Source: a virus
Lineage: Duplodnaviria; Heunggongvirae; Uroviricota; Caudoviricetes
Reading direction: 5' to 3' (one strand)
IMG/VR virus record: IMGVR_UViG_2541047846_000002
Span: 1 to 36,057 of that record
DNA length: 36,057 nt
Shown here: positions 1,134 to 14,466 of the stretch, piece by piece
Position numbering within the stretch: position 1 is the first letter of the stretch
Layout of the letters: every line of letters starts with the position of its first letter
Program-made: the position numbers and the translations under genes
Notes under the pieces: model-generated
What the model was told of the DNA's origin: nothing
Databases searched by the model: none
Seen by the model: the letters and a program-made list of their open reading frames with translations, nothing else

Positions 1134-1664
1134 TTACCTTAATTTATCAAGCTCTCGTTTATTTCTTTTATCATGTATATCATTAAGAAATAATATATTA
1201 CTAGCAATGATACTAAATAACGCTATTATTTGTAGATATACTAATAACGCGGTGATAAAAAATCCAAACTTGCAGAACACGTGCTTATGCAAGGAAATGA
1301 AATCCAGATTTGAAAATATAGGTTTCGTTAAATTTATTATAACAATAGAAAATATTACAATAGCTGAAATTATAATGGTTTTCACTATCAGCGTAATTCG
1401 CTCAATATCTTTTTCTGTTTCCTTATGATAGTTTATACTAGTTATTGTTGATGGCTTTACAATTGAACTTACAGCTGCAGGGTAAATATATGCAAGCCAA
1501 ATACCTGCAATAGTGAAGATCATTGCAGAAATGTTTTGCAAGGTAGATAAAATATCTTTTATATCTGCATACGTATATTTGTCTCCGAACAAATAAGCAA
1601 TAGCTATAATTGTTAGGAGAAAACATATGTGCAAAATTTTAGGTTTTATAATCATACTATGCAC
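1134..1664 (-). CDS. Small integral membrane protein, about four predicted transmembrane helices (cargo gene 2)
   Basis: 176-aa ORF with four long hydrophobic segments; start overlaps stop of upstream gene by 8 nt; visibly AT-rich. Confidence 0.6.
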   Translation of the reverse strand: MHSMIIKPKILHICFLLTIIAIAYLFGDKYTYADIKDILSTLQNISAMIFTIAGIWLAYIYPAAVSSIVKPSTITSINYHKETEKDIERITLIVKTIIISAIVIFSIVIINLTKPIFSNLDFISLHKHVFCKFGFFITALLVYLQIIALFSIIASNILFLNDIHDKRNKRELDKLR

Positions 1665-2859
1665 CTATTTTATGAATCTGCACTGCTGTATCATTATCAG
1701 CTTCTGGTTGTTCTATTATATCTTCATTTTTAAAACAATTCACCAAATCATTTCTATGAGCTTTTACTACACTCATTAAATATGAAGAAGAGTAATGTTT
1801 GTTTCTGTTAGAAAGGTCAACGTGAATTTCATGGCGATAAACATATTCATCTAACCAAGTAGTTGAACCATTTTTCCCATTTATTTTGAATCCGATGCGT
1901 GCGTGATCATTCCCTACATTCTCATTGTTGTTTTCTGTATCTTCTGAAATAGGATTGTGGTTTTCTATATATTCATCGATGAGTTTAGTGAACTCTTCAG
2001 GCGTAGGCGTTCCTTCGACTAATAATTCAACGCGATGTTTTTTTGATAAAATAGGAGAGCTTCTTGAGAAAACATCTCCAACTGCATCAAATAACTTCTG
2101 CCATTTTTCCCGTGTATCAGGTATGTTTGTTTCTATTACGTCATGGTAAACAATGTGAGTGATTTTTTTACACAGTTCTTCTATGTTTGCTCCACTCGTG
2201 ATCATCCTTGTTTGTTTAGTCTGTACTTTAAAAACTAAACTTTCATCATCACCTTGAGAAAAAAGAACACGTTTGTAATGAACGTCTTCAGGTGAGTCAT
2301 TACGAGGACGAGTCATATCTATGACTTTTTTATTAGGATGCTCCATCCTAAAGTCAACGTATGCTTTAATATAATGACAGAAAAGATCTGTATCCGTATT
2401 AGAACTTGGGAATCGTATGGATGCAATTTTGTTATATTCTGGAATTACCCAATAGTAGCAAGGTACGCCCCAGATATATTTACCGCCACCTTGAGTATCA
2501 GAGGCGGATACAACATTATCTGAAGTGCCGTCAATCTTACTTTCAGCATCTATACCTTGAATATTTCCAGAGTTATCACCAAGCGTTTTCCAGATAACAA
2601 ATAGATAATCTCCTGTCGTACTGTCATATGAAATATTTTTACAGTATGCTTTTGTTCTTCTATTATTATCCTTTCCCCATGGAACAGATTGTTCAACTGT
2701 TCTTGAACAGATCCAGCTATGTAAGTTACACAGAACATGGGATAAGTTCTTTTCGACTAATTCCGGCGATTTGCCTTGTCGTATTTTATAAAGGCCAAAC
2801 ATTTCTAAATCAAAAAATGTTATAATGCCGCGTTCAGTTTTAAAGTTGGTTTTACTCAT
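1657..2859 (-). CDS. Hypothetical soluble protein, 400 aa (cargo gene 1), co-directional with and immediately downstream of cI
   Basis: Long ORF in AT-rich DNA; AG-rich RBS-like sequence upstream of ATG at 2859; no motif I recognise. Confidence 0.6.
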   Translation of the reverse strand: MSKTNFKTERGIITFFDLEMFGLYKIRQGKSPELVEKNLSHVLCNLHSWICSRTVEQSVPWGKDNNRRTKAYCKNISYDSTTGDYLFVIWKTLGDNSGNIQGIDAESKIDGTSDNVVSASDTQGGGKYIWGVPCYYWVIPEYNKIASIRFPSSNTDTDLFCHYIKAYVDFRMEHPNKKVIDMTRPRNDSPEDVHYKRVLFSQGDDESLVFKVQTKQTRMITSGANIEELCKKITHIVYHDVIETNIPDTREKWQKLFDAVGDVFSRSSPILSKKHRVELLVEGTPTPEEFTKLIDEYIENHNPISEDTENNNENVGNDHARIGFKINGKNGSTTWLDEYVYRHEIHVDLSNRNKHYSSSYLMSVVKAHRNDLVNCFKNEDIIEQPEADNDTAVQIHKIGA

Positions 2860-2939: not shown

Positions 2940-3821
2940 TTAATTCGAAATGATTGTGCTTCTTATGCATGCAACTACCTCGATATCAGAAAATGCACAT
3001 TCAAAGTAAGTTTCTTTACTTCTGATATTTATCATACCTTTAGGTAGCCTAGTAATTTGTCTGACGGAATAGGTTCCATCAATATTAATTAACCAGTATC
3101 CATCTAATACATCAGAAAATTTCTGATCACAGATGTATGCCACTAAACCATCCTGAACGACAATTGGTGCTGAAAGATTAGCGGGTAAAAATGACGAATC
3201 GAAAATATATGAGCCACTCTCAACCATTTTGCCTGCATTGAGATGAAATTTAGGCAGTTCTTTTACCGATGTTGTGAGAGCATTGTGCTCGCTGCCTTGT
3301 CCAGTGGCTAGCCATAAAAGAGAATTTCCTGTTTCCAACGAACATTTTATGATCCAATCAGCCGGGAATGTGTCTCGCAAATATCTATTTGCCATAGTGC
3401 TTTTAGATACATTCAGATGGTCGGCAAGTTCTTGTCTTGTTTTAAAGCCATACGCTTTCATTAGCCTGTCTATTGCATCACGTCCGCCTGAGTCCAAATT
3501 CAGATCGTTCCCAATTGGGGACTTCAGGGTGGTGGCTTGGGAAACGTGCTGAACCTTTGATGCAGTTGCCTTTGACATGACCGGAGCCTCAGTACTCTGA
3601 GGGAATGGTACGCCTTTTCCGAATGAGAGCCACTCGATAGATGCACCCGTTTCAATTGCACACTGAATTACCCAGTCAGCAGGAAATACGTCACGCATCC
3701 AGCGCGTGCCCATAGTGCTTGCAGATACGTTGAACTGTTCGCACAGAGCTTGCCTTGTCTTGAATCCATACGCTTCAAGCATGCGCGTTATGACTGCTTG
3801 TCCTCCGTTTTTGAAATTCAT
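2940..3821 (-). CDS. cI: CI-type immunity repressor (186 CI family) with tandemly duplicated N-terminal HTH domain
   Basis: Two consecutive ~60-aa repeats (MLEAYGFKTRQALCEQFNVSASTMGTRWMRDVFPADWVIQCAIETGASIEWL / LMKAYGFKTRQELADHLNVSKSTMANRYLRDTFPADWIIKCSLETGNSLLWL) followed by a C-terminal domain; divergent from apl/cox. Confidence 0.8.
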   Translation of the reverse strand: MNFKNGGQAVITRMLEAYGFKTRQALCEQFNVSASTMGTRWMRDVFPADWVIQCAIETGASIEWLSFGKGVPFPQSTEAPVMSKATASKVQHVSQATTLKSPIGNDLNLDSGGRDAIDRLMKAYGFKTRQELADHLNVSKSTMANRYLRDTFPADWIIKCSLETGNSLLWLATGQGSEHNALTTSVKELPKFHLNAGKMVESGSYIFDSSFLPANLSAPIVVQDGLVAYICDQKFSDVLDGYWLINIDGTYSVRQITRLPKGMINIRSKETYFECAFSDIEVVACIRSTIISN

Positions 3822-5524: not shown

Positions 5525-5751
5525 TGGCAGATGCAATGGATCTCGTACAGCAGCGCGTTGAAGAAGAACGCCAGCGCTATATCCGTGCTGCCCGTGCCAA
5601 AACACCGGGCGTGTCTCGTGTGCTTTGTATTGAATGTGAAGCGCCAATTCCGCCAGCACGACGCCGCGCCATTCCTGGAGCGCAGCTTTGCATTACCTGT
5701 CAGGAAATCGCAGAGCTGAAAGGCAAACATTACAACGGAGGTGTTGTATGA
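5524..5751 (+). CDS. TraR/DksA-family C4 zinc-finger protein
   Basis: 75 aa with CxxC...CxxC (CIECEAP...CITCQ); common in P2-like early operons. Confidence 0.7.
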   Translation: MADAMDLVQQRVEEERQRYIRAARAKTPGVSRVLCIECEAPIPPARRRAIPGAQLCITCQEIAELKGKHYNGGVV

Positions 5752-6605
5752 GCACCATCCTGAAATGGGCGGGAAATAAAACCGCCATTATGTCCGAACT
5801 GAAAAAACATCTTCCTGCTGGCCCGCGACTGGTTGAACCTTTCGCGGGTTCCTGTGCTGTGATGATGGAGACGGATTACCCCAGCTATCTTGTTGCGGAT
5901 ATTAATCCTGATTTAATCAACCTCTATAAAAAGGTTGCTGCTGATTGCGAGGCGTTTATATCTCGTGCCAGAGCTTTATTTGAGGAAGCAAACAGGGAGG
6001 TGGCTTATTACAACATAAGGCAGGAGTTTAATTACTCCACTGAAATTACTGATTTCATGAAAGCGGTATATTTCCTGTATCTCAATCGTCACGGTTACCG
6101 TGGTTTATGTCGCTATAACAAGAGCGGGCATTTCAACATTCCCTACGGTAATTATAAAAATCCGTATTTCCCTGAAAAAGAACTTCGCACATTTGCAGAA
6201 AAAGCCCAGCGAGCAACGTTTATCTGCGCCAGATTTGATGAAACGCTGGCGATGTTGAAGGCGGGAGATGTGGTGTATTGCGATCCGCCGTATGACGGTA
6301 CGTTTTCCGGCTATCACACTGATGGTTTCACTGAAGATGACCAGTATCACCTGGCATCCGTTCTTGAACATCGGTCATCAGAAGGACATCCGATCATTGT
6401 TTCTAACAGTGACACATCCCTGATCCGTTCGCTGTATCGCAATTTTACTCACCACTATATCAAGGTAAAACGCAGCATCGGTGTGGCAGCTGGCGAGGGT
6501 AAATCAGCAACAGAAATCATTGCTGTTTCCGGGCCGCGCTGCTGGATGGGATTTGATTATTCGCGTGGCGTGGATAGTTCTGCCGTGTACGGAGTACGTG
6601 CATGA
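5748..6605 (+). CDS. dam: DNA adenine (N6) methyltransferase, Dam-like
   Basis: Motifs FAGSCAV (AdoMet binding) and DPPY (catalytic); start ATG 5748 overlaps upstream stop (ATGA) and GGAGG RBS; ORF-track start at 5688 is upstream of the likely true start. Confidence 0.85.
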
Positions 6606-9016
6606 GTCATGCCGATATAAACAACTGCTGCGGCTTTAACGAGGCTGCCGCAGCGTTCTCATGGAACAGCCCGAAAAAGGCCATTAACCCTTATCTGGAC
6701 CCGGCGGAAGTTGCGCCGGTTTCTACGCTTTCAAACCTGATCACTCTGTACGCTGCCGATAACGAGCAGGAACAGTTGCGCCGCGAGGCACTGAGTGATC
6801 AGGTCTGGGAGCGTTATTTCTTTAATGAATCCCGTGATCCTGTCCAGCGCGAAACGGAGCAGGATAAGCTCATTAGCCGGGCAAAGCTGGCGCATGAGCA
6901 GCAGCGTTTTAATCCGGATATGGTCATTCTGGCGGACGTCAACGCCCAGCCTTCCCATATCAGCAAGCCGCTGATACAACGTATTGAATACTTCAGCAGC
7001 CTGGACAGGCCAAAGGCTTATTCCCGCTATTTACGTGAGACGATTAAGCCATGTCTGGAACGACTGGAGCATGTACGCGACAGTCAGCTATCTGCATCTT
7101 TTCGCTTTATGGCAAGCCAAGAAGGGCTGGACGGCCTGCTGATCCTGCCTGAAATGAGTCAGGATCAGGTGAAACGCCTGTCCACCCTGGTAGCTGCGCA
7201 TATGAGTATGTGCCTTGATGCAGCTTGTGGTGATTTGTATGCCACCGATGACGTTAAGCCAGAAGAAATCCGCAAGACATGGGAAAAGGTGGCAGCGGAA
7301 ACCCTGCGTCTGGATGTCATCCCGCCTGCGTTTGAGCAACTCCGCCGGAAAAGAAACCGCCGTAAACCCGTGCCCTATGAACTCATTCCTGGTTCGCTGG
7401 CGCGTATGTTGTGCGCCGACTGGTGGTATCGGAAATTATGGAAGATGCGTTGCGAATGGCGGGAAGAGCAGTTGCGTGCTGTCTGCCTTGTCAGCAAAAA
7501 AGCATCTCCCTATGTCAGCTATGAAGCCGTGATGCATAAACGTGAGCAGCGCCGTAAGTCGCTGGAGTTTTTCCGTTCTCATGAACTAGTGAACGAAGAC
7601 GGCGACACGCTGGACATGGAGGATGTGGTAAACGCCAGCAGCAGCAACCCTGCGCATCGCCGCAATGAGATGATGGCCTGTGTTAAAGGTCTGGAGCTTA
7701 TCGCGGAAATGCGTGGCGACTGCGCCGTTTTCTACACCATCACCTGTCCGTCACGTTTCCATTCCACGCTAAATAACGGCAGGCCCAACCCGACCTGGAC
7801 AAATGCGACGGTAAGACAAAGCAGTGATTATCTGGTCGGCATGTTTGCTGCATTTCGTAAGGCGATGCACAAAGCCGGATTGCGCTGGTATGGCGTGCGA
7901 GTGGCTGAGCCGCATCATGACGGCACAGTTCACTGGCACCTGTTGTGTTTTATGCGCAAAAAAGACCGCCGCGCCATTACTGCTTTGTTGCGTAAGTTTG
8001 CCATTCGTGAAGACCGCGAGGAGCTGGGTAATAACACGGGGCCACGCTTTAAGTCTGAGCTGATAAACCCGCGCAAAGGAACGCCGACAAGCTACATCGC
8101 GAAATATATCAGCAAGAACATTGACGGGCGTGGTCTGGCTGGCGAGATCAGCAAGGAAACGGGTAAATCTCTGCGTGATAACGCTGAATACGTGAATGCC
8201 TGGGCGTCTTTGCATCGTGTTCAGCAATTCCGCTTCTTTGGTATTCCGGGACGTCAGGCTTACCGTGAACTTCGCTTGCTGGCTGGTCAGGCGGCAAGGC
8301 AACAGGGTGACAAAAAAGCAGGTGCGCCGGTACTGGATAACCCGCGTCTTGATGCCATTCTGGCTGCTGCTGATGCAGGTTGTTTTGCCACCTACATCAT
8401 GAAGCAGGGCGGCGTACTGGTTCCCCGTAAATATCACCTCATCAGAACCGCTTATGAAATCAACGAAGAGCCGACCGCCTATGGCGATCACGGTATTCGT
8501 ATTTATGGCATCTGGTCACCCATTGCAGAGGGCAAGATCTGCACTCATGCAGTGAAGTGGAAAATGGTTCGTAAAGCCGTTGACGTTCAGGAGGCGGCAG
8601 CCGACCAGGGCGCTTGCGCCCCTTGGACTCGTGGCAATAACTGTCCCCTTGCTGAAAATTTGAACCAACAAGGGAAAGACAAATCAGCTGATGGGGATAC
8701 CAGAACGGATATCACCCGCATGGATGACAAGGAGTTGCACGATTACCTGCACAGTATGAGCAAAAAAGAGCGCCGGGAACTGGCAGCAAAATTACGCATG
8801 GTTAAACCGAAACGGCGTAAAGACTACAAACAGCGAATTACAGAGTATCAGCGTCAGCAGCTCGTCTATGAACTGAAGTCCAGAGGATTTGATGGCAGCG
8901 AGAAAGAGGTCAATTTGCTCCTTCGCGGCGGCAGTATTCCGTCAGGAGCAGGCCTGCGTATCTTCTATCGGCACCAGCGTTTGCAGGAAGATGATAAGTG
9001 GCGAAACCTGTATTAA
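6602..9016 (+). CDS. A: Rolling-circle replication initiator, P2 gpA family
   Basis: 804-aa ORF; contains YIAKYISK-type active-site tyrosine motif; position after early genes; ATGA overlap with dam. Confidence 0.85.
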
Positions 9017-9108: not shown

Positions 9109-9128
9109 TACTGTAAATATAAACAGTG
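9109..9128 (+). promoter_or_regulatory. LexA (SOS) box TACTGTAAATATAAACAGTG
   Basis: CTGT-N8-ACAG at 9111-9126 with flanking TA/TG, about 40 bp upstream of the 9169 start; matches consensus TACTGTATATATATACAGTA at most positions. Confidence 0.6.
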
Positions 9129-9168: not shown

Positions 9169-9357
9169 ATGCAGGACTATTTTTTGGAGTCTTTGAAGCT
9201 CCAGCGCATTGATTTTTTTCTTAAGCTTGTAGCGGCTAGTGAGTGTAGTGATGAAGAGAAGGGGCTGGCCCTGCAGTGGGTTTCTGAACTGACAGATGAA
9301 CTCATGGCAAAAATCAGAACCCACGAATACAACCGCTCAATGGATGTCATCAGCTGA
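9169..9357 (+). CDS. Small SOS-controlled protein, possible Tum-like antirepressor N-terminal module
   Basis: 62-aa ORF with strong RBS (AGGAGG) directly downstream of the LexA box; position equals tum in 186. Confidence 0.5.
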   Translation: MQDYFLESLKLQRIDFFLKLVAASECSDEEKGLALQWVSELTDELMAKIRTHEYNRSMDVIS

Positions 9358-9367
9358 GGTGACTTTT

Positions 9368-9601
9368 ATGCGCATTGAAATAATGATCGATAAAGAGCAG
9401 AAGATTAGCCAGTCTACCCTGGACGCCCTTGAATCCGAGCTTTACCGCAATCTGCGCCCCCTATATCCAAAAACGGTAATTCGCATCCGCAAAGGTAGCT
9501 CTAACGGTGTGGAACTGACCGGACTGCAACTGGACGAAGAAAGGAAGCAAGTGATGAAAATTATGCAGAAAGTGTGGGAAGACGACAGCTGGCTGCATTA
9601 A
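9368..9601 (+). CDS. DinI-family protein
   Basis: 77 aa, MRIEIMIDKEQ...ESELYRNL...KVWEDDSWL resembles E. coli DinI (MRIEVTIAK...ETWESADDW); GAGGTG RBS; ORF-track start at 9296 is upstream. Confidence 0.75.
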   Translation: MRIEIMIDKEQKISQSTLDALESELYRNLRPLYPKTVIRIRKGSSNGVELTGLQLDEERKQVMKIMQKVWEDDSWLH

Positions 9602-9736
9602 GAAACGTTGCTGGCGTCTGAACTTGCTTCTGGCGTCAGCAAGGTTGAACTACGAGCCCTTGCGAGGCGTTAGCTCTGTAGTGCATGTCTATGTCGCATG
9701 AGATCGCATGATCGTTTGAGGATCGTTTTTGCTAAG

Positions 9737-9762
9737 GCCCGCCAGAACTGGCGGGCTTTTGC
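9737..9762 (+). terminator. Rho-independent terminator (GCCCGCCAG-AA-CTGGCGGGC-TTTT)
   Basis: Perfect 9-bp stem followed by T-run downstream of the DinI-like gene. Confidence 0.55.
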
Positions 9763-9805: not shown

Positions 9806-9824
9806 GGCGTGGCGGGGATACGAG
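9806..9824. other. Candidate cos (cohesive end) site
   Basis: GGCGTGGCGGGGATACGAG resembles the recalled P2/186 19-nt cohesive end (GGCGAGGCGGGGAAAGCAC for P2); lies at the expected map position between early/tum region and portal gene. Confidence 0.35.
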
Positions 9825-9976
9825 CGCGCGCTAAGTCATATAAGAGTTATATATTGATTTGATTGCTGGACATGCATACAGTATCGCTCTATCATCTAAT
9901 AAATCTTAGAGTATTTGGCAATGTTTGGATAAAATGGAACCTAACTTATTCATAATCCGCTAAACAGGGATGTCAG

Positions 9977-10891
9977 ATGCCATACCAATTGGTAGAGCTT
10001 AGCCCCGTAGCTAACGATCTTGAACAGTTAGGAACCAAAGAGAAGTTTTGGTTCTATTTCTCCGATGACACTGTAAATTTGCAGTTGTTTAAGTACTCTA
10101 GGCCAGGTACTGGCGAGCATTGGTCTGAAAAGTGTGCTGCTGAGTTATGTCATTTGCTTAACATTCCACATGCTAGCTATGATTTGGCGCGATACAATGG
10201 TCGATTCGGTGTGGTGACTCAGAATATCATTCCATCTGGTTTCCGGATGGTAATGGGAAATGAAGTGCTTCACAGTTCGACATTCGATTATCCTGGGCCT
10301 TTACAAGCCGGGGAAAAGCCGGTAAGGGTCAGAGAACACACTGTCACAAGGGTATTGGGTTGTTTGGATAGGGAATCTATCAAGCCTCCTCCGAGTGTAT
10401 ATGATCTAACCGGGCTAAATGCAGCAGATGTATTTTGTGGATATTTGATGCTCGATGCACTTGTGAGTAATCAAGATCGCCATCATGAAAATTGGGCGAT
10501 CATGCTTAACAATGAAACTGGTGAGCAGTTTTTGTGTCCAACATACGATCATGCCGCTAGTTTAGGAAGGGAGATGTTAGATGATGAGCGTAACGAACGG
10601 CTTAATACTAAAGATAAAAATCGACAAATCCCATGTTTTGTAAGAAAAGCTCGCTCTGAGCTATTCAAAGCAAAAACTGATAAAAAGCCCTTGCTGACCG
10701 TTGAAGCATTTCAACATGCAGTTGAAGGGAGAGTTGCCGCTCGCGACCATTGGTTAGGTAAGTTGAGCGTTTTAACAGAAGATTCCATTACAGATGTGTT
10801 TAACCAAGTGCCTTCATCGTGTATATCCGACAGTGCACGTAGATTTGCAACGTTAATGGTAATGGAAAATCGCAGAAGGTTACTAGAATGA
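9977..10891 (+). CDS. HipA/HipT-like (PI3/4-kinase-fold) Ser/Thr kinase core domain protein
   Basis: 304 aa; P-loop-like GTKEKF (aa 19-24) and catalytic loop SNQDRHHEN (N-x-D-x-H-x-x-N, aa 165-172) separated by ~145 aa as in HipA; lacks the HipA N-terminal subdomain; stop overlaps downstream start (ATGA). Confidence 0.6.
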   Translation: MPYQLVELSPVANDLEQLGTKEKFWFYFSDDTVNLQLFKYSRPGTGEHWSEKCAAELCHLLNIPHASYDLARYNGRFGVVTQNIIPSGFRMVMGNEVLHSSTFDYPGPLQAGEKPVRVREHTVTRVLGCLDRESIKPPPSVYDLTGLNAADVFCGYLMLDALVSNQDRHHENWAIMLNNETGEQFLCPTYDHAASLGREMLDDERNERLNTKDKNRQIPCFVRKARSELFKAKTDKKPLLTVEAFQHAVEGRVAARDHWLGKLSVLTEDSITDVFNQVPSSCISDSARRFATLMVMENRRRLLE

Positions 10892-11628
10892 CTAATACAA
10901 ACTCCGTTTACGTCGCATGGCAGGCACCAGATACCAGAGACTGGCATGTTGTTGGTAACTTGCAAGAGCGCAAATCGGGGTATGTTTTCAGGTATACCAA
11001 AGGTGCTCTTAAATCTACTAAATTTACAAAGTTTAGCGGCATGAGTGATGTTCGTGAAACTTATGTTTCGGAAGAATTGTTTCCTCTTTTTAAAAATCGC
11101 CTTTTATCACCGAGACGTCCAGAGTATCCGAGTTTCATTAAATGGCTTGGATTTGAAGAAGATAAGGTAAATCCTATCGATATTCTTGCTCGCTCGGGAG
11201 GCTTACGAAGCACTGATCAGCTGCAGATTTTCAAAAAAATTGATGTTGATTCTGATGGTAACTTTGAGCATTTTTTCTTCTTACATGGACTTGGTTACTT
11301 AAATAGCTTAGCTAATGCTCGTGTATCTGAATTGAAACCGGGGCAAATTTTGCGTCTTTGCTTGGATCTTCAAAATGAATACGATGGGGATGCTGTTGTC
11401 GTTCGTGCAGATAAACCAGCTGAAATCGTTGGTTACTGCCCTAGGTATTTAAGTAATGATATCAAGAAGATGTTATTGGATGATCCAAAATCAATCACTT
11501 TAACGGTCGAAAAGATTAGCGATGATGCTCCTCATAACTATCGGTTATTATGTAAATTATCAGGAGTACTAAGCCAAGCCTGTCAATCGACGCTGATTCC
11601 TCAGGATGAGTTTGAACCTATTGAGTAA
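10888..11628 (+). CDS. Two-domain protein: N-terminal region tentatively resembling the HipA N-terminal (HipS-like) domain, C-terminal HIRAN-like domain
   Basis: 246 aa; C-terminal LRLCLDLQNEYDGDAVVVRADKPAEIVGYCPRYLSNDI matches the HIRAN pattern (L.REP.N.YD.NAI.V...GY.pr); N-terminal GYVFRY...ELFPLFKNRLLSPRR loosely resembles HipA N-domain motifs. Confidence 0.55.
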   Translation: MTNTNSVYVAWQAPDTRDWHVVGNLQERKSGYVFRYTKGALKSTKFTKFSGMSDVRETYVSEELFPLFKNRLLSPRRPEYPSFIKWLGFEEDKVNPIDILARSGGLRSTDQLQIFKKIDVDSDGNFEHFFFLHGLGYLNSLANARVSELKPGQILRLCLDLQNEYDGDAVVVRADKPAEIVGYCPRYLSNDIKKMLLDDPKSITLTVEKISDDAPHNYRLLCKLSGVLSQACQSTLIPQDEFEPIE

Positions 11629-11634
11629 ATGAAG

Positions 11635-11658
11635 AAAAGCCACCAAACGGTGGCTTTT
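11635..11658. terminator. Bidirectional hairpin terminator between convergent genes (AAAAGCCACC-AAAC-GGTGGCTTTT)
   Basis: 10-bp stem flanked by A-run and T-run between the 11628 stop (+) and 11663 stop (-). Confidence 0.5.
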
Positions 11659-11662
11659 CTTA

Positions 11663-12703
11663 TTATGGGACTATATCTAGCGAGTAGGTATTAAACTGTA
11701 TCGCCTCCTTGCCAAGCCAATCATTCATCTCCTGTAATCGCTTTTGTAGTGGCATTAGCTCATTTCGGACGAATACACGGCTTGCCTTTTCCACATCCCC
11801 AAACCCCCCAACATTATTCGGCATAATCCCCATCATTTGCGGCGGCACGCGGTGCGCTGCCATCATGTCATCCCGACTCACGTTCTTGATGTTAAGAAAT
11901 TCATCCTTCGCCGCGACTTCTGACAATGGGATGATCTGAAGCCCGTCTTTTTTGCCGTTAGGTGAGTACATAAACAGGTTGCGGAAGTTGCCTGGACCTT
12001 TGGCGCTTTTCATCGCGTTGCGGAGGTTGTTCACATCCTCCTGATTCTGCGCGGCATCGGTCATGTACATGATGAAGCCTGCATGGCTGCCGTTAATGTA
12101 ATACTTACGGCGGAACAACGTGGCGGACTCGTTGAGCAGGGCTGACGGAATGGCAGAAAGATAACCGGGCAGGCCGTAGATCTCCTGGTTGATATCCGGT
12201 TCCATCAGATGAAAGATGCTGCCTTTCGTGAACTGATACGGCTGCGTAGTCATGCCGTATTGCACAAACCAGTAGGTATCCAGGTCTAACCCGCGTCGGG
12301 TGTATTTTGCCAGAGCAGGCTCAAGGGCGATAACTTCACCGAAGCGGTTCGTGCGTTTCTCCAGGTAGGCGTTACCAAATACCAGATAGTCCTGCACAAA
12401 ACGTGAAAAAGCCTGCTGGCTGAGCAGCGGGTGGGGGATGTAGGTACTGGTCAGAATGTTGCATTTCACCGCAATTGGTGAACTGTGATGCACGGCGGCG
12501 CGGAAGGTGCGCGCCAGTCCGTCAAAGCTTACTGGCGGCTCATACCAGCGATCTGTCTGTACGCATTCCACATAGTCCAGTAGTTCGCGGCGGTCCAGAA
12601 CAGGAACGGGATCACCGAAGCTGAATGCTTCGGCTGTAGTTTGACTTTTATGCTGGATCTGGTTCGTCGACGCAGCGCGGTTCTTCTTACTCTTTCCCAT
12701 CAA
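11663..12703 (-). CDS. Q: Portal protein (P2 gpQ-like)
   Basis: 346 aa, size and position (adjacent to and overlapping terminase large subunit, divergent from scaffold/capsid operon) as P2 Q. Confidence 0.75.
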   Translation of the reverse strand: MMGKSKKNRAASTNQIQHKSQTTAEAFSFGDPVPVLDRRELLDYVECVQTDRWYEPPVSFDGLARTFRAAVHHSSPIAVKCNILTSTYIPHPLLSQQAFSRFVQDYLVFGNAYLEKRTNRFGEVIALEPALAKYTRRGLDLDTYWFVQYGMTTQPYQFTKGSIFHLMEPDINQEIYGLPGYLSAIPSALLNESATLFRRKYYINGSHAGFIMYMTDAAQNQEDVNNLRNAMKSAKGPGNFRNLFMYSPNGKKDGLQIIPLSEVAAKDEFLNIKNVSRDDMMAAHRVPPQMMGIMPNNVGGFGDVEKASRVFVRNELMPLQKRLQEMNDWLGKEAIQFNTYSLDIVP

Positions 12704-14466
12704 AAAATCTCCACAATATTACTGGTATTGGCGGACTCGCCCTGCAGTGGTTCGTTAAACAGTGCGTGCATTGTTGCCCAGGCCAGATCGGCGTGGCTGG
12801 CTTCTTCGCTGCGGCTGGCTTCATAGGTTGGGCGGTTGCCACTGGCGGTGGTTGCGCGACGGATTGCCATGAATGACTGCGCAATGTCGGTGTGCCCGGC
12901 GTCAAACTCCAGACGGCGGTGGCTGATAATGTCGTAGGCCTTGAGTACCAGGGCGTTTTTAACGTTGGGGTTGTAGACAAACTCCCGGACGGCAGGAAAG
13001 AACGCTTTCACGTTCTCGTAAACCCCGTGACCAACGCCGGTTGAGTCGATACCGATATAAGTCACGTTGTACTGTTCGGTAAGTTTTTTGATGGCGTCAG
13101 CCTGGGCGCGGAAGTCCATCCCGCGCCACTGGTGACGCTCAAGAATGCGGAACTTACCACCCGGCACGGCTGGCGGTGCCACCACCACGCATCCAGCGCT
13201 GTCGCCGTTTTGCGTACCTTTTGCCGGGTCATAACCGATCCACACTTCGCGCCAGCCAAACGGGCGCAGCGCCAGTGCATGAAAGTCGGTCCAGACTTCC
13301 CAACTGTCCACCATGCACGCCTGCAGCTCGCTGAGCGGAAACACGGACGCGAGATCGTCCACAAACTCGCACATCAGCAGGTTCTGGTATTCGTCTGGGC
13401 TGTACTCCATGCGTAGCTGGTCGAGGTCGAACAGGTTACAGCCGCCGCGCACCGCATCTTCCACGGTGACTATCTGGCGGTATTGCCCGTCTGCGCACAG
13501 CAGGCCGGGGGCCAGATTGCTGTGGGACAGGTCGATGTCCACCTTATCGGCTTTGTTGCGCCCACGGTTGAACAGCGCACCGGACCAGAACGGATAAGCA
13601 CTGTGTGTCAGACTGGATGGCGTGGAAAAATAGGTTTGTCGCCATTTTTTGTGAATAGCCATACCGGAAGCCACTTTGCGCAGCTCCTGGAATTTCGGTA
13701 TCCAGAAATATTCATCCAGATACAGGTTGCCGTGGTAACTCTGGGCCGTGCGGGCATTGGTGCCGAGGAAGTAAAGCGTGGCCCCGTTAGGAAGCACCAT
13801 CGGATCGCCTTTCAGCTCCACCTCCACTTCTTTGGCAAAGTCGATGATGTACTGTTTAAAGACGTGGGCCTGAGCCTTGCTGGCAGAAAGGAAAATCTGG
13901 TTACGCCCGGTCAGCAGGGCGTCAATCAGGGCTTCACGGGCAAAGTAAAAGGTCGCGCCGATCTGGCGTGACTTCAGCAGGTTGCGGATGCGGTTGGTTT
14001 TTCCGGCTTCCCACCAGTGGCGCTGGTAGTTGAACATAGAGGAATGGAAGATTTCTTCCAGTTTCTCAATCTGTTCATCGGTGAAAACATTCTTTTCCGG
14101 CTGACGACGTGGGCCTTTGTTGCGGTTGGCAACGTTAGGGTTTAAGTCGGCTTCGTTGCCGCCATTGTTAAACTTGCCGATCCGCGCGTGGCGCTCAGAC
14201 TGGCGTGCCAGCAGGTCAATTTCTTTGAAATCTTTCCCTTCTTTGTGCTCCTTCATAATGAGCTGGCAGTAGCGTGCGGCGGTGGTGAGCTGCATCTGAT
14301 CCAGCGGCCCATAGTCACCCCACTTGTCGCGTTTTTTCCAGCTGTGAACGGTTGCAACTTTCTCGCCCAGCATTTCAGCAATGCGGGCTACGCGGTATCC
14401 CTGAAAGTACAGCAGCATGGCCTGCCGACGGGGATCGAGATCTGCGGGTGTCAGTGTGGTGTTCAT
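12700..14466 (-). CDS. P: Terminase large (ATPase) subunit (P2 gpP-like)
   Basis: 588 aa (P2 P is ~590); synteny Q-P divergent from O-N-M-L. Confidence 0.8.
   Translation of the reverse strand: MNTTLTPADLDPRRQAMLLYFQGYRVARIAEMLGEKVATVHSWKKRDKWGDYGPLDQMQLTTAARYCQLIMKEHKEGKDFKEIDLLARQSERHARIGKFNNGGNEADLNPNVANRNKGPRRQPEKNVFTDEQIEKLEEIFHSSMFNYQRHWWEAGKTNRIRNLLKSRQIGATFYFAREALIDALLTGRNQIFLSASKAQAHVFKQYIIDFAKEVEVELKGDPMVLPNGATLYFLGTNARTAQSYHGNLYLDEYFWIPKFQELRKVASGMAIHKKWRQTYFSTPSSLTHSAYPFWSGALFNRGRNKADKVDIDLSHSNLAPGLLCADGQYRQIVTVEDAVRGGCNLFDLDQLRMEYSPDEYQNLLMCEFVDDLASVFPLSELQACMVDSWEVWTDFHALALRPFGWREVWIGYDPAKGTQNGDSAGCVVVAPPAVPGGKFRILERHQWRGMDFRAQADAIKKLTEQYNVTYIGIDSTGVGHGVYENVKAFFPAVREFVYNPNVKNALVLKAYDIISHRRLEFDAGHTDIAQSFMAIRRATTASGNRPTYEASRSEEASHADLAWATMHALFNEPLQGESANTSNIVEIF

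Follow-up and report, generated by a model that had tools for sequence, protein, structure and literature searches.

A hipIN-type kinase–HIRAN operon beside the cos site of a P2/186-like prophage with a conserved, predicted LexA-type operator

Introduction

What kind of module is formed by two overlapping genes that lie beside the cos site of a P2/186-like prophage, and how is it controlled? The prophage is contained in IMG/VR record IMGVR_UViG_2541047846_000002, of which we analyzed the entire stretch of 36 057 nt (the window); it is complete, and a host permease gene lies at the far end. An initial annotation of the sequence had pointed to a pair of translationally coupled open reading frames (ORFs), and both of them are present. 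Gene 1 (9977..10891, + strand) encodes a protein of 304 aa, predicted to be a HipI-type Ser/Thr kinase, and gene 2 (10888..11628, + strand) encodes a HipN-type protein of 246 aa with a HipS-like region (residues ~1–110) followed by a HIRAN domain (residues ~120–230). The two genes overlap by 4 nt in the sequence ATGA (10888–10891).

We found that the cassette is a catalogued, uncharacterized candidate defence module, whose architecture, name and abortive-infection hypothesis were published in 2021–2022 and are not new. The new result is a conserved LexA-type operator, which is absent from the earlier descriptions of the module as hipIN, PDC-M03 or HIRAN-kinase. As predicted from the sequence, the two genes form an operon with its own promoter, an overlapping conserved LexA-type box, its own terminator and translational coupling.

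Results

Gene 1 encodes a kinase core and gene 2 a HIRAN partner

Searching the gene 1 product against Pfam gave HipA_C as a weak match (E = 3.6e-4) under the gathering score, and PI3_PI4_kinase was sub-threshold as well. The protein belongs to a family of 955 homologues and matches phrog_8728. Three motifs were found to be invariant in 35 homologues: the Gly-rich loop L18-G19-T-K-E-K-F24 (LGTKEKF), the catalytic loop S164-N-Q-D167-R-H169-H-E-N172 with D167 as the catalytic residue, and the metal-binding motif Y190-D191-H-A-A-S195 with D191 as the Mg-binding residue. The first two contain the motifs GTKEKF and SNQDRHHEN, which had been singled out in the initial annotation. When each protein was compared as a single sequence with PDB sequences, nothing significant was returned, and profiles and fold searches were needed; an NCBIfam search of both proteins gave no match. 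A profile of the 35 kinase homologues matches the HipA-like kinase CtkA of Helicobacter pylori (E = 4e-4), and the alignment runs through the catalytic and Mg-binding motifs. The AlphaFold model of the gene 1 product (pLDDT 83.8) matches the fold of CtkA as well (E = 3e-9, template modelling (TM) score 0.65–0.74). Other matches of the model are HipA of Escherichia coli and Shewanella and HipT of Legionella and E. coli (7wcf, 7vkc, 8ezs), and the remoter ones include VPS34, ATM and ATR. It is the HipA core to which the protein aligns, so that the TM score normalized to targets of 415–440 aa is only ~0.4. Since the Gly-rich loop starts at residue 18, the N-subdomain 1 of HipA is absent from the protein, as had been proposed by comparison with HipT, and the fold matches to CtkA, HipA and HipT agree with this proposal. 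Judged by its motifs and its model, gene 1 is predicted to encode a catalytically intact HipA-superfamily Ser/Thr kinase core.

For gene 2, the HIRAN domain (PF08797) was detected above the Pfam cut-off (E = 1e-13, residues 127–228, 51.3 bits compared to 24.7 bits). Of the other Pfam families expected in the initial annotation, Couple_hipA (E = 0.018, residues 20–72) is a weak match, as is the below-gathering HipA_C match in gene 1. In the structural model (pLDDT 87, pTM 0.82) Foldseek matched the C-terminal half of the protein to the HIRAN domain of HLTF (E = 3e-5, probability 1.00) and to the bacterial HIRAN protein lp_0118. The N-terminal half was matched to HipS of E. coli HipBST (7ab3_E, E = 1.6e-3, TM score 0.66 normalized to HipS) and to Legionella HipS (7vkb_B), and the proposed composition of a HipS-like region with a HIRAN region is borne out by these matches. 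A profile of 121 gene 2 sequences (mean column identity 29%) recovered lp_0118 (E = 1.8e-5) and HLTF (E = 0.02). It places L-D-L-Q-N163-E-Y165-D166-G-D-A169 over R-D-P-N-N-P-Y-D-K-N-A of HLTF, so that N163, D166 and their neighbours align to N91, D94 and their neighbours; the 3′-end pocket motif of HLTF is N91/Y93/D94. In the 121 sequences conservation reaches at least 90% at N163, D166, A169 and G182, and from the conservation of these pocket residues the 3′-end pocket looks intact. Thus, Pfam threshold, fold and pocket motif all assign the domain to the HIRAN family. With a profile of the N-terminal domain only, HipS was the sole PDB match; it is collinear and not significant (E = 1.2).

The gene 2 family comprises 535 word-indexed homologues. 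An exhaustive profile search found 315 clusters at 50% identity (E ≤ 1e-30), nearly all of 235–270 aa with both domains, which are spread over phages and islands of Gammaproteobacteria, Firmicutes and Actinobacteria.

The pair is a catalogued hipIN-type module

The combination of the two proteins had not been recognized as a described system in the initial annotation. This has to be corrected, as hipIN (2021), PDC-M03, the survey of Rousset et al. (2022) and DefensePredictor already cover the pair. The hipIN module was defined by Gerdes, Baerentsen and Brodersen (mBio 2021, PMC8262856) as a short HipI kinase followed by HipN, a HipS-like region with a HIRAN domain; HipI proteins have a size of 279–321 aa, lack N-subdomain 1 and carry the Gly-rich loop near the N terminus. 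We observed the same characteristics in the window, namely a short kinase without N-subdomain 1 (304 aa, loop at residues 18–24), the core Hip motifs of Gly-rich loop, catalytic site and Mg2+ binding, and a partner of HipS-like region plus HIRAN domain. According to Gerdes et al., most bacterial HIRAN domains retain their DNA-binding motifs, and the authors proposed that HIRAN recognizes phage DNA ends or replication intermediates, which activates the kinase and leads to abortive infection (PMC8262856). The hypothesis of the initial annotation is almost word for word the same. The study of Gerdes et al. included only 14 hipIN modules and no experiments, and clade XI is listed with 'None' as experimentally analyzed (PMC8262856).

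In PADLOC-DB v2, where PDC stands for 'phage defence candidate', the two adjacent genes match the two-gene system PDC-M03 and the models of no other system. Residues 2–304 of the kinase align to positions 4–300 of 305 in PDC-M03A (PDLC04344, E = 2.1e-122), and residues 1–244 of the partner align to positions 1–241 of 245 in PDC-M03B (PDLC04347, E = 3.4e-93). A match to an already characterized system had been named beforehand as a finding that would count against the novelty of the pair; the PDC-M03 match is significant, but it leads to a system that is catalogued and uncharacterized.

The cos-proximal hotspot between gpA and gpQ of P2, in which old/tin and several validated systems are located, was defined by Rousset et al. 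(Cell Host Microbe 2022, PMC9122126). WP_001146828 and WP_000185757 are entries for this hotspot in their Table S5 (PMC9122126), and we found that these are the products of the 100% identical copy in E. coli SCU-115. In Table S6 a pair of Vibrio crassostreae is labelled 'HIRAN-kinase' (PMC9122126); its kinase is 35% identical to the kinase of the window (E = 5e-58). The pair was catalogued by Rousset et al. and not cloned, and Table S2 has no HIRAN entry (PMC9122126). In DefensePredictor (Science 2026, PMC13092281), WP_000185757.1 has a log-odds value of 5.5 and the label 'predicted novel defense gene'. In Gram-positive bacteria about one-third of the genes for deoxydinucleotide-specific DEDD nucleases adjoin HipA plus HIRAN pairs (NAR 2025, PMC11706625). 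Millman et al. (2022) do not mention the system. In gene order, sizes and domains the module described as hipIN, PDC-M03 or 'HIRAN-kinase' is identical to the pair in the window, without any difference in architecture; all these sources are bioinformatic only, and the LexA-type operator is unmentioned in them.

A LexA-type operator overlaps the promoter of the cassette

Upstream of gene 1 we found a sigma-70-like promoter (TGGACA-17-TATCAT, 9867–9895, + strand), which matches 10 of 12 positions and is the only promoter-like site between 9000 and 12 000. Its geometry is shared by relatives, for instance by TGTATA-17-TATAAT in locus L036. By a multi-locus alignment of the region from cos to the kinase gene across divergent loci we recognized a LexA (SOS) box-like operator, TGCTGGACATGCATACAGTA (CTG-N10-CAG), at 9864–9883 on the + strand, lying over the -35 hexamer and the spacer of this promoter. 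The box agrees with the E. coli LexA consensus TACTGTATATATATACAGTA at 15 of 20 positions. Only two boxes with at least 15 of 20 matches exist in the 36-kb window (9864–9883 and 9109–9128), while shuffled sequences gave 0.02 on average.

For better evaluation we compared the related viral loci that have upstream DNA, 52 in number. In 43 of them, a box scoring 15–18 of 20 precedes the kinase ATG by 109–136 nt, and boxes are 69 times as dense upstream of the kinase as in the other 586 kb of these loci. When 13 diverse upstream regions (44% mean identity) were aligned, CTG and ACAG were the sole invariant columns besides the start codon. Boxes nearer to the consensus were found in more divergent members, e.g. 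TACTGTATAAAGATACAGTA with a kinase of 70% identity. The box of the window has G and not T at position 6 (CTGG) and may be a weaker site than the 17–18 of 20 boxes of the relatives. The allele of E. coli O157:H7, which is located outside a prophage, retains a LexA-type box as well (AACTGGATATAATCACAGTA). We observed no LexA-type box in eight IMG/VR loci with kinases of 56–60% identity, and neither a LexA nor a Cheo box was seen upstream of the pairs of Vibrio Vinavirales and C. difficile phages. As the box is absent from these distant pairs, the operator characterizes the enterobacterial clade (kinase identity ~66–100%) and is not shared by the whole family. A repeat search upstream of gene 1 revealed no inverted or direct repeats, the arms of the LexA box being too short for such a search.

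The site thus has the characteristics by which members of the LexA regulon are recognized, that is CTG-N10-CAG with an AT-rich spacer, a position over the promoter and conservation in orthologous loci. Our conclusion is that LexA very probably represses the enterobacterial cassette at this predicted operator, and that the operon is probably SOS-inducible. Gerdes et al. mention neither LexA nor SOS (PMC8262856).

The other box, TACTGTAAATATAAACAGTG (9109–9128, + strand), is strong and matches 17 of 20 positions; it precedes a small ORF (9169..9357) and a gene of the DinI family (9296–9601), a place at which an SOS-controlled unit would be expected in a 186-like phage, and most of the P2-like loci that we examined have it as well. 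In combination with the 186-type CI repressor (2940–3821, − strand) this box points to a prophage that is SOS-inducible and has a Tum-like unit, in which case two SOS-controlled units would flank cos. A weak LexA-like box, AACTGTATGTTTGACCAGTG (1085–1104, + strand, 13 of 20), lies in the gap between the start of the integrase gene (1–1053, − strand) and the end of a gene matching PDC-M18B (see below) and may be a chance match.

The cassette occupies the cos-proximal hotspot and is bounded by terminators

A P2/186-type cos core, GGCGTGGCGGGG, was found at 9806–9817 (+ strand); it occurs once in the window, with 0.02 chance matches expected. The block is invariant in six divergent P2-like loci, and the alignment collapses just 3′ of it, the variable cassette starting ~20 nt to the right of the core. 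The kinase–HIRAN cassette lies between the cos core and the portal gene (11663–12703, − strand), with the gene for the replication endonuclease gpA (6602–9016) on the other side of cos. This places it beside cos and between gpA and gpQ, the location that defines the P2 hotspot, and the accessory position assumed in the initial annotation is therefore correct. The GC content of the cassette is 38–45%, compared to 52–58% in the flanks.

Terminators had been predicted on both sides, and both hairpins fold strongly. The left one, an intrinsic-terminator hairpin with a U-run (9734–9762, + strand), has an RNA folding energy of -23.4 kcal/mol (z = -5.0), which none of 200 shuffles reached, and is kept in the alignment of P2-like loci. 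It terminates the preceding unit of LexA box, small ORF and DinI-like gene and insulates the cassette from it. The right one (11632–11661) is a bidirectional terminator hairpin that serves the cassette (+) and the portal gene (−) in common; its folding energy is -21.0 kcal/mol for the + strand (z = -6.9) and -20.4 kcal/mol for the − strand (z = -7.4). A consensus terminator scanner listed neither of the two flanking hairpins; both were confirmed by folding. Rfam gave no credible RNA family between 9000 and 12 000, the match at the hairpin 11632–11661 reaching 32 bits compared to a gathering score of 114.

Kinase and partner are inherited as a unit

Next, we investigated the distribution of the pair. 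The partner is encoded in 53 IMG/VR loci. In all of these the kinase gene is located directly upstream on the same strand, and the two genes overlap by 4 to 20 nt or abut. The identities of kinase and partner fall in parallel, from 100/100% to 56/54%. Kinase and partner are thus inherited as a unit.

A P2-type portal gene is convergent with the cassette in 37 of the 53 viral loci. The cassette was found in the gpA–gpQ slot even where the portal is only 62–65% and gpA only 30–37% identical. The distance between the DinI-like gene and the kinase gene varies from ~0.4 to ~2.8 kb, which indicates that other cargo shares the slot. Extra DNA can occur on either side of cos; the cassette described here is on the portal side, and some other cargo is on the gpA/DinI side. 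Such co-cargo varies among L001, L004–L028 and the loci in Table S5 of Rousset et al. (2022). Examples are a hypothetical gene of 870 nt in E. coli SCU-115 (L001 4424–5293) and, in one arrangement of Table S5, DarT plus Macro (DarTG) (PMC9122126).

The remaining loci belong to different prophages, in which the neighbours include genes for DNA methylases, Mu-F-like, tail and DUF968 proteins. We sampled five non-P2 prophage contexts, and four of them have a gene for a DNA methyltransferase (N6_N4_Mtase or Eco57I-type) within ~1.5 kb of the pair (L042 6882–7979; L046 7126–8169; L047 3394–4524; L049 7378–9042). This proximity may reflect a shared moron region.

Distant copies in GenBank phages were found in Vibrio Vinavirales elements and in a C. 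difficile phage, each with the kinase gene followed by the HIRAN gene beside an integrase. The Vinavirales elements of Vibrio cyclitrophicus are temperate, tectivirus-like and ~14 kb long (pair at 3039–4732 of L002, Vibrio phage 10N.286.55.A12_PE001), and their partner is 35% identical to the gene 2 protein. From this copy it follows that the cassette spans very different virus realms.

Among 5,426 complete E. coli genomes the pair is present in 51, always on the chromosome. The allele of the window is carried by 21 of these genomes, while 30 carry an allele with ~67% nucleotide identity. The allele of O157:H7 FRIK944 (L057 6976–8635) lies outside a prophage, beside cdiBA, a KAP P-loop NTPase and an ISL3 remnant.

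Comparison with known kinase and SOS modules

HipBST of E. coli O127:H6, Legionella and Haemophilus is likewise a split HipA. It has three genes, for the autoregulator HipB with a helix-turn-helix domain, for a stand-alone HipS of ~100 aa that resembles N-subdomain 1, and for the kinase core HipT; HipT and HipS are fold matches of the two window proteins. HipS neutralizes HipT by binding at the Gly-rich loop, and inhibits it with Trp65 (PMC10627512). In contrast to HipBST, the window pair has no gene for HipB, the kinase gene comes first and the HipS-like module is fused to HIRAN; no ORF with a helix-turn-helix domain was found in or beside the operon in the ORF list and a Pfam scan. For these reasons we rejected membership in HipBST. 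The window kinase has E16-Q-L18 where HipT has its autophosphorylation motif S57-I-S59, the residue mapping being inferred, and both by sequence and by fold it is nearer to CtkA than to HipT.

In the single-chain protein HipL described by Gerdes et al. (2021), kinase, HipS-like and HIRAN modules follow in the same order as in the window, where they are split over two overlapping genes. By Rosetta-stone reasoning, such a fusion argues for a joint action of the two window proteins as one unit. We checked longer HipN-like representatives and found no kinase–HipS–HIRAN fusions, only one secretin chimera and otherwise C-terminal extensions.

DS-6/HipAD is a validated two-gene anti-phage system, which requires the catalytic residues of its kinase (DefensePredictor, Science 2026, PMC13092281). 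It corresponds to PADLOC PDC-M66 and resembles the window pair in combining a HipA-family kinase with a partner other than HipB. However, its partner is DUF3037/DUF1829, whereas the window partner has only HIRAN and Couple_hipA. With a different partner and no PDC-M66 match in PADLOC, membership in HipAD was rejected as well.

P2 old/tin and other gpA–gpQ cargo share the slot, a reservoir of superinfection exclusion, but their proteins are unrelated to the window pair. LexA-controlled toxin modules of E. coli include tisB/istR, symER, dinJ-yafQ and yafNO. They are similar to the cassette in having a growth-inhibiting effector, putative in the window, behind an SOS box. The window effector differs from theirs in being a predicted protein kinase, with a partner that has a predicted DNA-end-binding domain.

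Discussion

A proposed DNA-end-sensing kinase under probable SOS control

Which function would fit a kinase with a HIRAN partner behind a LexA-type operator? We favour the reading that the hipIN-type module is a DNA-damage-licensed, DNA-3′-end-sensing kinase for defence or superinfection exclusion, and consider the chances that this is correct to be about even. In the resting lysogen LexA would keep expression low, and the HipS-like domain, by homology with HipT–HipS, would dock on the kinase at the position of the HipA N-subdomain 1 and hold it inactive. DNA damage, or an infecting phage that generates single-stranded DNA and free 3′ ends, would derepress the operon; the HIRAN domain would bind the free 3′ ends and thereby relieve the inhibition of the kinase. 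The released kinase might then phosphorylate an essential host or phage protein and arrest growth or phage development. Abortive infection or superinfection exclusion would be the outcome, protecting the lysogen population and with it the resident prophage.

The steps of sensing and derepression are derived from HIRAN biochemistry, from the hotspot context and from the LexA box. That the context is one of defence is suggested by the gpA–gpQ hotspot, the methylase morons, the O157:H7 island with cdiBA and KAP, the candidate status in PADLOC and the positive DefensePredictor score. Precedents are the neutralization of HipT by HipS and the dependence of DS-6/HipAD defence on kinase activity.

Several points weigh against this reading. 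The N-subdomain of HipA, which is homologous to HipS, is an integral part of the active kinase and not an inhibitor. Furthermore, the HipS assignment of the gene 2 N-terminal domain comes mainly from the predicted fold, the sequence match being not significant (E ~1.2). The Trp65 wedge of HipS is not evidently conserved in the window partner. The equivalent loop, with a residue correspondence that is extrapolated, instead contains the most conserved motif of the family, F65-P-L-F-x-N70-R71-x-L-x-x-x-R77-P-E-Y, in which N70-R71...R77-P-E-Y is invariant, so that the mode or even the direction of inhibition could differ. Control by LexA is usual for genes of the damage response and for SOS toxins, more so than for classical abortive infection systems, and it fits the alternatives discussed below equally well. 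Finally, a literature search found no experimental test of the hipIN/PDC-M03 pair with regard to toxicity, neutralization or phage resistance.

If the mechanism is true, the module would be the first case shown in which a bacterial sensor for immunity or stress reads DNA 3′ ends via HIRAN, and a second, mechanistically distinct family of HipA-kinase defence beside HipAD. The family is large (315 partner clusters) and still has only 'candidate' status in PADLOC and DefensePredictor. The LexA operator provides a concrete and easily tested regulatory hypothesis, and it may explain negative results if the pair is ever assayed without SOS induction. A bolder version, which we regard as tentative and rather improbable, is a prokaryotic checkpoint kinase for DNA damage and DNA ends, licensed by LexA and switched on allosterically when the HIRAN partner captures 3′ ends or very short DNA fragments. 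This two-key sensor would be an analogue of ATM/ATR/DNA-PK in prophage immunity, and the deoxydinucleotide-specific nuclease beside Gram-positive HipA plus HIRAN pairs could clear the short-fragment signal.

Alternative explanations

The cassette might instead be an SOS-induced toxin–antitoxin module for growth arrest or persistence, with host DNA damage as the primary trigger. Cleavage of LexA would then induce the operon, HIRAN would bind 3′ ends at gaps or stalled forks and the kinase would transiently halt translation or growth, to the benefit of the host and hence of the prophage. The LexA-type box over the promoter speaks for this explanation, as it travels with the cassette even to a non-prophage island, and so does the resemblance to the LexA-controlled tisB, symE, dinJ-yafQ and yafNO and to persistence mediated by HipA. 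HipA is, moreover, the archetypal persistence kinase, and eukaryotic HIRAN domains act at damaged replication forks (PMC8262856). However, the cassette is rare, with a patchy distribution (51 of 5,426 E. coli genomes), and the places where it occurs are overwhelmingly accessory hotspots of phages and conflict islands. This pattern fits defence cargo better than a housekeeping stress module, and PADLOC as well as DefensePredictor score the pair as defence-like. We therefore consider it unlikely that growth arrest upon host damage is the main function, although the two functions are not mutually exclusive.

It is also conceivable, if quite doubtful, that the pair is no toxin–antitoxin system at all. 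The HipS-like domain would complete a split kinase, and HIRAN would recruit the holoenzyme to 3′ ends, where it would phosphorylate DNA-bound proteins of phage or host (such as SSB, replication or recombination factors) and interfere directly instead of by suicide. HipS is structurally equivalent to the integral subdomain of active HipA (PMC10627512), the single-chain HipL of Gerdes et al. makes a labile antitoxin impossible (PMC8262856), and the Trp65 wedge, which is not evidently conserved, points in the same direction, as does the pTM of 0.82 for the partner, which in the model indicates a rigid two-domain unit. On the other hand, HipS is inhibitory in the only characterized split systems (HipBST of E. 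coli and Legionella), and the coupled, kinase-first order is usual for toxin–antitoxin pairs of this clade.

A role in the lytic cycle of the phage itself appears very unlikely. Induced along with the Tum/DinI-like SOS unit when the 186-like prophage is activated, the pair would either help to take over the host, in the manner of the T7 kinase, or work on recessed 3′ ends at the nearby cos termini in replication or packaging. The two LexA-type boxes that flank cos (9109–9128 and 9864–9883) and the 186-type CI repressor would fit such a role, and HIRAN binds recessed 3′ ends as cos ends with 5′ overhangs would presumably present them. Yet the cassette is dispensable and sporadic among near-identical P2-like phages, and together with its LexA box it also occurs in non-P2 prophages and in a non-phage island, so that it has no fixed link with P2 cos or with P2 induction. 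The same occurrence of cassette and operator outside P2 and outside prophages lowers the probability of a plain addiction module that stabilizes the prophage or island by post-segregational killing, with HIRAN serving only generic DNA binding or autoregulation; despite the toxin–antitoxin-like gene organization, in which HIRAN might replace the helix-turn-helix domain with which classical type II antitoxins bind DNA for autoregulation, we regard this as the most improbable explanation, since HIRAN recognizes DNA ends and not operators, the conserved 3′-OH pocket argues for predicted end binding, no upstream repeats besides the LexA box were found, and integrated prophages gain little from plasmid-style addiction.

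Other features of the prophage

The terminase gene (12700–14466, − strand) adjoins the portal gene, and no tRNA genes were found in the window. A gene for a Dam-type adenine methylase of the D12 class (5688–6605, + strand) overlaps the start of gpA and matches the PADLOC models for orphan methyltransferases (E = 1e-111). Between the integrase and the CI repressor we observed a second overlapping gene pair on the − strand, 1657..2859 (400 aa) and 1134..1664 (176 aa). Both products are without Pfam domains and match the PADLOC models PDC-M18A (E = 2e-36) and PDC-M18B (E = 5e-24), respectively; with these matches the prophage holds at least two uncharacterized defence-candidate cassettes. Furthermore, an acyltransferase gene (Acyl_transf_3, E = 3e-40; 24811–25842, − strand) occupies the Z/fun accessory position of P2, with the tail-fibre genes on one side and the sheath gene on the other. 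Its product is probably an O-antigen or surface acetylase involved in lysogenic conversion.

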